Shown here one piece after another: positions 16,655 to 18,389 of a DNA stretch of 50,066 nt. Under the pieces are notes generated by a model. It was not told where the DNA came from and ran no database searches. It saw only the letters and a list, made by a program, of their open reading frames with translations. Within the stretch, counting starts at the first letter, position 1; every line of letters starts with the position of its first letter. The stretch comes from Escherichia phage EF3-1: the sequence record PQ571291. One strand, 5' to 3'. A program made the translations under genes and the position numbers.

Positions 16655-16681
16655 AAGCCCCGCATTGCGGGGCTTGTTTTT
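16655..16681. terminator. bidirectional rho-independent terminator
   Basis: AAGCCCCGC-ATT-GCGGGGCTT hairpin with A-run upstream and T-run downstream between convergent ssb and tail-fiber genes. Confidence 0.75.
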
Positions 16682-18389
16682 ACTTGCTTTCCGTTAGTTT
16701 TTTTATCATATCCTCAAGTGCGGAAACTCTTGATTCAAGATCGGAAATTCTTTTTTTGTTATCCTCATCTCTTAACCTTAATGCCTTTATTGCTGCCATG
16801 CTGTCAGATAGGAGAGGATTTAAATCAAGAGTCATCATCCCTGGCGTCCCGTGGTAATGAACGTATTCCTTGTCAACCGTGGCTGCTTGTTGTGCGATGA
16901 TTCCACGTCGCGCAGATCGATCAGGTTCATCAAACGTATAACGGAACAACTTAAACTCAAGGCGGTTGATGTTATCCAGCGCCGCTTCCACATTTAAATT
17001 ACCCTTAATATCCTTCACACGGGCGTCAGACGTACCAGCATCTTGCACCCGCGACCATGTTTTCGTCGTAGAGGAGACTTGCGCGTTACCGGAGTCATTC
17101 CAACGATAGTATAGCGCTGGCAACGCACCGACCATAACCTGAGCAACACGCTCTGGAGCGTATGCCGATTGAAATCCTGCTCCGTTTGCTGGTGCCCAGG
17201 TCTGGGTGCCGATCGACTGCGAGAAAAAGCAAGCCTGCGTATTCGGTGGAGGGACTGAGTTTTCAATCCCCAGCCCGTAGTCCTTCGGCTTCACCGCTTC
17301 GCACCAGTTCTGAAGCACTCCATTCTCCTTAGTTCGCCAGAAAAAACGGCTTTGACGTGCGGCGAACTGCACAGCGTAATTGCTAGCGAACTTAACATGC
17401 AGTCCCGCAACAGAGAAGTCACCTAGAGGAGATCCTGCGTTAGACGCAATGAGGGTGCTTTCGTCCGCGTCGTCCCAGCGTACGCCAGGTGCGCCGCCGC
17501 CGATCCCATAGTCACCAACACCGATTGCGTTTAGAGTCTGCCTCGCCGCCGATTTGTCAGTAAGGTCGTTTAGATTGTTATCTTTATGAAGTAGATTTTC
17601 TGCGTCTACGCTATTAGCTGCGTCTTTAGCTTCCTGTGCGCTTACTGCCGCTGCATCTTTTGCGATAACCGCTGTATCACGCGCTTCCTGTGCATCGTTT
17701 TTTGCAGAGGTTGCCGTTTGCGCTGCCGTTTGAGCGTCGTTAACGTAAACCGACAAATCACCTTTAGATTCATTAATTGCCTGAATAGCCGAAGCCTCTT
17801 CCGTGTCGATATGAGAGATGACAGATGATTCCTTAGATCCGATATCAGTGATAGCCTGATCTTTTGCGGCATTAATTCCACCGATAGCCCCGTCAACAAT
17901 CTGCTGTGTCTGATTCTTGATTGAGTTAGTTTCATCGCGTGCAGCGTTGGCGGCGTCACGCGCTAATTCAGCCTGATTTTGCGCAGCTTGAGAATCAGAT
18001 TTCGCCTTATTAACATCAGCAACTATTTGCTCAAGTTTATTCATATCAAGCTGATTTATCAGATCTATAGCTGCCGCGATCTCAGTCTCTTTGCTTTGAT
18101 AGTATCGAAGCGTCTCAGCAACGTTTTGAGCTAAGCCGTTAACAGTCAGTGAATCGTTAAGTAGGATCACATACTTACCGTTAGCCGCCGTTTGACCGTC
18201 GGTAGAGATAGCCTTTAATTCGGTGTCGCTAACTATATCGCTAATCACCGCCAGCTTAATTGGTTGCTCAAGGAACACGATAGTTGCACCTACGCGAATA
18301 AGAGCAAGCTGGTCTTTCCATTTCGTATCGGTTCCGTGAACCGTTCCGTCTGCATCCATTGATGCCGTACCGCGTCGATATAAAGCCAT
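16680..18389 (-). CDS. side tail fiber with C-terminal intramolecular chaperone (peptidase S74-like) domain
   Basis: Ala/Gln-rich coiled-coil shaft; C-terminal SDARVKDIKGN...LESRVSALEDMIKKL resembles auto-cleaving chaperone domain of T5 L-shaped fiber/endosialidases; SD AAGGAG. Confidence 0.7.
   Translation of the reverse strand: MALYRRGTASMDADGTVHGTDTKWKDQLALIRVGATIVFLEQPIKLAVISDIVSDTELKAISTDGQTAANGKYVILLNDSLTVNGLAQNVAETLRYYQSKETEIAAAIDLINQLDMNKLEQIVADVNKAKSDSQAAQNQAELARDAANAARDETNSIKNQTQQIVDGAIGGINAAKDQAITDIGSKESSVISHIDTEEASAIQAINESKGDLSVYVNDAQTAAQTATSAKNDAQEARDTAVIAKDAAAVSAQEAKDAANSVDAENLLHKDNNLNDLTDKSAARQTLNAIGVGDYGIGGGAPGVRWDDADESTLIASNAGSPLGDFSVAGLHVKFASNYAVQFAARQSRFFWRTKENGVLQNWCEAVKPKDYGLGIENSVPPPNTQACFFSQSIGTQTWAPANGAGFQSAYAPERVAQVMVGALPALYYRWNDSGNAQVSSTTKTWSRVQDAGTSDARVKDIKGNLNVEAALDNINRLEFKLFRYTFDEPDRSARRGIIAQQAATVDKEYVHYHGTPGMMTLDLNPLLSDSMAAIKALRLRDEDNKKRISDLESRVSALEDMIKKLTESK

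Follow-up and report, generated by a model that had tools for sequence, protein, structure and literature searches.

Lateral tail fibre genes hold a fixed and published position in the Drexlerviridae. In the BASEL paper, which treats 13 members of the family, these genes lie between conserved recombination genes and the primase/helicase genes (PMC8594841, legend of S1C Fig), and conservation of the fibre gene there is limited to its far 5′ end (PMC8594841). Among siphoviruses with accessory glycan-binding side fibres, T5 offers a close parallel for the other end of such a protein. Its fibre protein pb1 (PDB 4UW7/4UW8) carries a C-terminal S74 chaperone; with the mutation S1264A autoproteolysis is blocked, and a chaperone that stays uncleaved masks binding to the receptor (PMC4690869). 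Receptor-binding domains are often transferred horizontally together with their chaperones, as described in BASEL-2 (PMC11990801). Here we analyse a minus-strand gene, at positions 16680–18389 of a 50,066-nucleotide (nt) stretch of Escherichia phage EF3-1 (record PQ571291; hereafter the window), which had been predicted from its letters to encode a side tail fibre with a self-cleaving chaperone domain. With high confidence, we take it to be the lateral tail fibre gene of a T1-like phage (Tunavirus, Drexlerviridae), with a C-terminal S74 chaperone and a mobile module made of tip and chaperone.

The lateral fibre gene of EF3-1

The open reading frame (ORF) starts with ATG and encodes 569 amino acids (aa; 61.2 kDa), in agreement with the original prediction. 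The predicted mature fibre comprises aa 1–453 (48.1 kDa), and the fragment beginning at Ser454 measures 116 aa (13.2 kDa), slightly more than the 110 aa or so that had been anticipated. The features of the gene and its product are as follows.

16680–18389, minus strand: lateral tail fibre gene (ORF listing; PHROG_1980 tail fiber match at 5.7e-77; molecular weights)
18093–18389, minus strand: N-terminal virion-anchor domain, about aa 1–99 (87–92% nt identity to Tunavirus fibres; match to 7vyv/7lzj)
17580–18092, minus strand: helical shaft, about aa 100–270, rich in Ala, Asp, Asn and Gln and free of Pro (composition; heptad periodicity; weak Alanine_zipper match)
17031–17579, minus strand: junction motif NNLNDLTDKSAARQTLNAIG, then the β-rich putative receptor-binding tip (aa 271–453)
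16683–17030, minus strand: Peptidase_S74 intramolecular chaperone domain by homology, aa 454–569
16689–17571, minus strand: horizontally replaced cassette of tip and chaperone (blastn against SA12KD; JLBYU60 identity; four-way alignment)

The tip part holds the invariant Arg429 and a conserved Trp445 and ends in Thr453. Ser454 is encoded at 17028–17030 and Lys459 at 17013–17015, and the chaperone domain terminates in a helix of about 45 residues. Between the SSB gene (16228–16650, plus strand) and the primase gene (18490–19425, minus strand) there is no substantial gene besides the fibre; further ORFs, such as 17642–17959 (minus) and 16628–16900 (plus), overlap it on the opposite strand or out of frame. 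No tandem repeats were found in the fibre gene, and the assembly index that was searched held no record of the exact 569-aa chimeric protein.

Several lines of evidence identify the product as a side tail fibre. Among the PHROG tail-fibre families the best match is phrog_1980 (5.7e-77), which spans aa 14–562. The first 780–819 nt of the gene are 87–92% identical to more than 60 annotated Tunavirus tail-fibre genes, with which it has the start codon in common. At the protein level, aa 1–166 match the N-terminal part of the solved structures 7vyv, 7vz3 and 7lzj (E 2e-42), which we take to be depolymerases from Klebsiella phages of the Drexlerviridae, and the similarity stops in the neck. By homology, approximately the first 99 residues are thus assigned to the virion-anchor domain common to side fibres and tailspikes of the Drexlerviridae. 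Two of the features that characterise a drexlervirid lateral fibre, the N-terminal attachment domain and the syntenic locus, are found here.

The shaft had been described as an Ala/Gln-rich coiled coil, which proves loosely right. Ala makes up 20.6% of aa 111–290, followed by Asp (10.6%) and Asn (9.4%), both of which exceed Gln (8.3%), and the number of Pro residues in aa 100–266 is zero. In a crude comparison with shuffled sequences, the hydrophobic power at a period of 3.5 residues is higher than that of the shuffles in aa 100–165 (p=0.007) and aa 215–266 (p=0.03), and is not above them in the Gly-containing aa 165–215; an Alanine_zipper match in this region is weak and falls under the Pfam cutoff. 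Because the periodicity is significant in two stretches and not in the one between them, the shaft reads as a segmented coiled coil, as far as its sequence can tell.

The genomic setting is equally familiar. Positions 1–25000 of the window are collinear with, and 92–94% nt identical to, Tunavirus phages (vB_EcoS_SA12KD, Chapo), from which the window is assigned to a T1-like Tunavirus genome; taken in full (1–50066), at about 50 kb, it has the look of an entire T1-like (Tunavirus) genome. Since the nearest records, SA12KD and Chapo, are just 92–94% identical over the first 25 kb, the phage may belong to a species outside the August 2025 phage collection. According to PHROG assignments, the fibre gene is flanked on one side by exonuclease VIII, Erf and SSB, all on the plus strand, and on the other by two minus-strand genes, for primase and a transcriptional regulator, followed by a plus-strand helicase. 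The gene order round the fibre is identical in SA12KD and Shfl1. As the BASEL paper describes the same locus for the family, this location is the published lateral-fibre position and no oddity. The gene does lie inside the replication region, as had been noted, and this is the family norm; it is also separate from the tail operon, although hardly far from it, with only some 4 kb between the fibre gene and the end of the central fibre gene J (9189–12641).

The tip and chaperone module

A comparison with the fibres of related phages shows where the EF3-1 gene departs from its family. The Tunavirus fibres Shfl1 p56 and SA12KD gp28 share with it the position between SSB and primase, the minus-strand orientation and the terminators at both sides, as well as the anchor and shaft (87–92% nt identity over the first ~800 nt) and a C-terminal PF13884 domain. 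Their distal ~300 aa, in contrast, are unrelated at the DNA level: the Shfl1 fibre is 55% identical over the full-length protein, and the SA12KD match ends at aa 286. The reverse is true for gp28 of the Dhillonvirus JLBYU60 (annotated 'putative tail tip protein') and the fibres of Dru_SM5, slur05 and slur06. Here the tip and chaperone are alike (80–83% aa and 83% nt identity), and both the junction motif and the SDARVK site recur, whereas the N-terminal anchor of JLBYU60 gp28 is a different one (MAAGTLSVTNNS...), and its gene follows that of the central fibre at a short distance downstream, with the same orientation.

The breakpoints of this exchange can be placed closely. A blastn comparison with SA12KD covers positions 1–16688 and 17572–25000 of the window, leaving 16689–17571 as the sole non-homologous stretch in 25 kb. 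Positions 17580–16777 (nt 810–1613 of the gene) share 83% nt identity with the JLBYU60 lateral-fibre gene, and aa 274–569 are 80–83% identical to the proteins of JLBYU60, Dru_SM5, slur05 and slur06. In a four-way alignment the parent switches near position 17580, at the codons for ...LLHKD|NNLNDLTDKSAARQTLN..., and the crossover sits at a conserved 'NNLxDLxDK..AR' junction. Because the only break in 25 kb falls in this gene and the replacement is of Dhillonvirus type, these sequence comparisons directly support a mobile module of tip and chaperone, gained by recombination from a Dhillonvirus-like fibre. The proposal of a modular, exchangeable cassette thereby holds for the 3′ two-thirds of the gene.

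The last ~90 nt of the gene (16689–16776, minus strand; about 30 codons of the chaperone coiled-coil helix) have no DNA-level match in either the Tunavirus backbone or JLBYU60. Over these codons the protein is still similar, and a very similar helix, RDEENKKRISALES, is found in the relative P0028. The mismatch may reflect a third parent in the recombination, or faster divergence of the 3′ end.

The module is not confined to these two groups of phages. A copy with 79% identity was found on a third, different N-terminus, in the gene at 6001–7530 of a 53.3-kb Logan contig (SRR33263650), where it lies between gpJ and an integrase, which points to a temperate lambdoid phage or prophage. Since this lambdoid contig carries a 79%-identical copy, the module crosses the divide between virulent and temperate phages.

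Two further groups of relatives were observed. In the Campylobacter-labelled phage records A112a, A14a, A13a and A14b, the fibre tip is 35% identical to the coliphage module; other Campylobacter-labelled records match the T1-like backbone, and the host labels of all these records look doubtful. Five long relatives (P0084, P0086, P0090, P0094 and P0105; 1000–1335 aa) match the tip part only (approximately residues 7–180 of the query fragment). The matches are internal and come in two or three stretches, with the chaperone unmatched in the best-scoring one. These proteins may be fibres in which the tip is repeated or lies internally, comparable to the T-shaped fibres with dual receptor-binding domains of BASEL-2.

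The C-terminal S74 chaperone domain

The original prediction placed a chaperone of S74 type at the C-terminus on account of the signature SDARVK, which occupies aa 454–459 and is preceded by Thr453. The signature by itself was rejected as evidence, for the pattern S-D-x3-K turns up by chance a second time, at aa 54, within the N-terminal anchor. Because the bare pattern is so unspecific, the assignment is based on the domain context, which bears it out. The Pfam family PF13884 covers aa 454–510 (32.3 bits, E 1.2e-7; cutoff 22), and the sequence profile matches the C-terminal domain of DT57C LtfA (3.3e-9). When 1.84 billion representatives were searched exhaustively by HMMER with aa 274–569 as the query, 199 relatives were found, from which an alignment of 85 sequences was built. 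In this alignment Ser454 is conserved in 84/84 sequences, Asp455 in 83/84 and Lys459 in 84/84, and the upstream Arg429 in 83/83. The 130-aa chaperone by itself was an uninformative query in a word-indexed protein search, with a single match.

The fold of aa 274–569 was predicted with AlphaFold2. The model from an alignment of 24 sequences was unusable, with a predicted local distance difference test score (pLDDT) of 46.5, and the 85-sequence alignment was used instead (pLDDT 89.1). In the model, a β-rich domain leads through a loop with Ser454 into a small α/β unit and then a helix of about 45 residues. This fold matches the MyRF ICA domain and the intramolecular chaperone (IMC) domains of endoNF, phi29 gp12 and T5 pb1, an outcome in keeping with the fold prediction that had been suggested as a check, and its matches in BFVD are all phage fibres that carry the S74 annotation. 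A phmmer search of the PDB sequences found neither T5 pb1 nor endoNF, but just DT57C LtfA and 8jov, so the link to the classic IMC structures is made through the fold comparison. Taken as a whole, the profile match, the Ser–Lys dyad after a Thr, the predicted α/β fold with its long C-terminal helix and the position as the last domain support the assignment of aa 454–569 to the Peptidase_S74 intramolecular chaperones. PF13884 is present alike in the fibres of Shfl1, SA12KD and JLBYU60, and for this reason we regard an S74 chaperone as standard equipment of the Drexlerviridae lateral-fibre locus, judging from these profile matches.

The likeness to T5 pb1 extends to the cleavage site itself: T1263–S1264 with K1269 in pb1 corresponds to T453–S454 with K459 in the EF3-1 fibre, that is, a Thr–Ser scissile bond with a Lys at +5. 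In both, the chaperone consists of a long coiled-coil helix and an α/β subdomain, and both belong to side fibres of siphoviruses, the role of the EF3-1 fibre being a predicted one. The passengers set the EF3-1 protein apart from two other S74 proteins of known structure. In endoNF, the endosialidase of K1F (PDB 3GW6), the passenger is a sialidase β-propeller with a triple β-helix stalk, and in MyRF (ICA domain, PDB 7DC3) a eukaryotic transcription factor, whereas the EF3-1 passenger is a small fibre tip.

Arg429 (17103–17105, minus strand), located 25 residues ahead of the scissile Ser, shows the same strict conservation as the two catalytic residues, Ser and Lys. In S74 chaperones, a folding-sensor Arg from the neighbouring chain completes the active site, as described for T5 pb1 (Arg1250) and endoNF. 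Arg429 is a candidate for such an inter-chain 'folding sensor', an equivalence that lies beyond the reach of a monomer model.

Following the T5 and K1F paradigms, the fibre may be assembled in the following way. A homotrimer is predicted, with anchor (about aa 1–100), shaft (about 100–270), tip (about 300–453) and chaperone (454–569) as its parts, the N-terminal anchor docking the fibre to the tail tip. By analogy with the K1F endosialidase and T5 pb1, the chaperone would trimerise through its long C-terminal helices, thereby putting the chains in register, and would act as a template on which the tip folds. When this folding has been correctly completed, Lys459 would activate Ser454 to cut the Thr453–Ser454 bond, and the 13-kDa chaperone would leave, exposing the binding surface of the mature fibre (48 kDa). 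It is most likely this mature form that first touches, reversibly, a surface glycan (O-antigen or lipopolysaccharide core), and irreversible binding would come next, through the central fibre and a separate receptor-binding protein. From trimerisation onward, these steps are drawn from the homologous systems.

Might the S74 domain instead be kept in the mature fibre, either uncleaved or as a permanent cap, with the full-length protein being the functional one? Cleavage of this fibre is a prediction, its chaperone is shorter than that of T5 (116 aa against 133 aa), and the model is without the long β-hairpin 'tentacle' described for T5 pb1. However, Ser454, Asp455 and Lys459 are conserved across 84 diverse relatives, within a Thr–Ser scissile context and together with the invariant Arg429, and such conservation is the expected outcome of purifying selection on proteolysis. 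In T5, moreover, an uncleaved chaperone blocks receptor binding, as cited above. A retained domain is improbable, although slightly less so than the other alternatives to a lateral fibre that sheds its chaperone.

The tip and the role of the fibre

S74 chaperones also serve endosialidases, so one may ask whether the protein is an enzymatic, glycan-degrading tailspike or depolymerase rather than a lateral fibre. This is very improbable, and the reading was rejected: the homology to the solved depolymerases ends with the shared anchor and neck at about aa 166, and a catalytic domain is absent. Pfam finds no glycosidase, lyase or β-helix domain in the fibre protein, and the ~150 residues between the shaft and the cleavage site are too few for a β-helix catalytic domain. 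The structural matches to tailspikes align 86–107 residues, which fits matching of the IMC only, while the best structural matches of the tip domain are fibre tips, namely those of R-type pyocin fibres, the receptor-binding proteins of phi812 and phage K, and the Mu fibre.

It is possible, although we do not consider it quite probable, that the tip (about aa 300–453) is not like that of T5 pb1 but a small β-sandwich akin to domains at the distal end of R-type pyocin fibres, and that with its own S74 chaperone it forms a self-contained module which moves among virulent T1-like, virulent Dhillonvirus and temperate lambdoid phages, being grafted at the same 'NNLxDLxDK..AR' junction onto unrelated anchors.

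A number of points weigh against the interpretation of the gene as a lateral fibre with a cleavable chaperone and a receptor-binding tip. The lateral-fibre role in the Drexlerviridae has, according to the BASEL paper, 'never been directly demonstrated' (PMC8594841), and cryo-EM of laboratory T1 showed no lateral-fibre density. For EF3-1 itself, both autocleavage and the presence of the fibre in virions are expected only by homology. The tip matches have large root-mean-square deviations (13.8 Å to 6cl6) and come from a monomer model of what is expected to be an intertwined trimer; for these reasons, and since the matches stand without residue-level alignments, the assignment of the tip fold is tentative. 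Finally, the promoter-like sites upstream of the gene, listed below, are consensus matches, of which 12 were found in the region against 7.3 expected.

The signals around the gene are as follows.

16655–16675, both strands: bidirectional intrinsic terminator of the convergent SSB and fibre genes (9-bp stem with 7 GC pairs, T-runs on each strand; fold z −4.8/−4.7; annotated in SA12KD)
18398–18404, minus strand: Shine-Dalgarno sequence TAAGGAG, 8 nt before the ATG (read directly from the upstream sequence)
18433–18468, minus strand: pair of overlapping promoter candidates of sigma-70 type (9/12 matches each in a consensus scan; consensus match only)
18474–18491, minus strand: intrinsic terminator at the primase gene end, upstream of the fibre gene (7-bp stem, then TTTTTTGTT; fold z −3.5; annotated in SA12KD)

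The minus-strand hairpin at 18491–18474, with its T-run, comes straight after the primase stop codon. The promoter candidates, TTGACC-16-CACAAT and TTGCAA-17-TAAAAT with an extended TG, are sited between this terminator and the fibre gene. Both of the terminators said to bracket the gene are thus real, and the arrangement suggests that the fibre gene may form a small minus-strand transcription unit of its own between the recombination genes and the primase. That the gene is a dispensable or unexpressed relic of a 'fibreless' phage like laboratory T1 or lambda, with no role on natural hosts, is the least probable of the alternatives, for although laboratory T1 gave no such density and lateral fibres of the T5 type can be dispensed with on rough K-12 hosts (PMC8594841), the EF3-1 gene has an intact ORF with a strong Shine-Dalgarno sequence, a promoter-like site and flanking terminators, its recently acquired module retains all the conserved chaperone residues, and the locus is maintained in every relative examined.

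Two neighbouring regions deserve mention. Within 19487–20258, between the primase and the plus-strand helicase, lies a minus-strand ORF of 174 aa matching phrog_2856 (transcriptional regulator), and the minus-strand promoter-like sites at 20019–19991 and 20258–20229 suggest that the replication genes are controlled from a divergent region. Convergent with gene J, a minus-strand ORF of 324 aa (12670–13644) matches phrog_1265 'membrane protein' at 4.5e-120. Its counterpart in SA12KD is followed by a lipoprotein gene, to which, by analogy, a small minus-strand ORF at about 13636–13866 of the window would correspond; the SA12KD annotation at that locus records partial similarity to the Dhillonvirus slur05. 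The ORF at 12670–13644 and its neighbour are probably what the BASEL paper regards as the genuine receptor-binding protein (RBP) locus, and a Cor-like exclusion lipoprotein.

The EF3-1 fibre is a new allele, or new chimera, of a thoroughly known kind at the standard position of its family, and the result leaves the understanding of tail fibres and of S74 chaperones unchanged. What it does provide is confirmation of the gene annotation and one more allele of lateral-fibre tip diversity. The breakpoints of this natural swap of tip and chaperone between phage groups, at about 17580 and at 16689, are a template for host-range engineering in T1-like phages. If the tip is indeed a self-contained, pyocin-like module, the junction would be a natural portable splice site for retargeting the side fibres of siphoviruses, and the glycan target of the module could be read across all three phage types.
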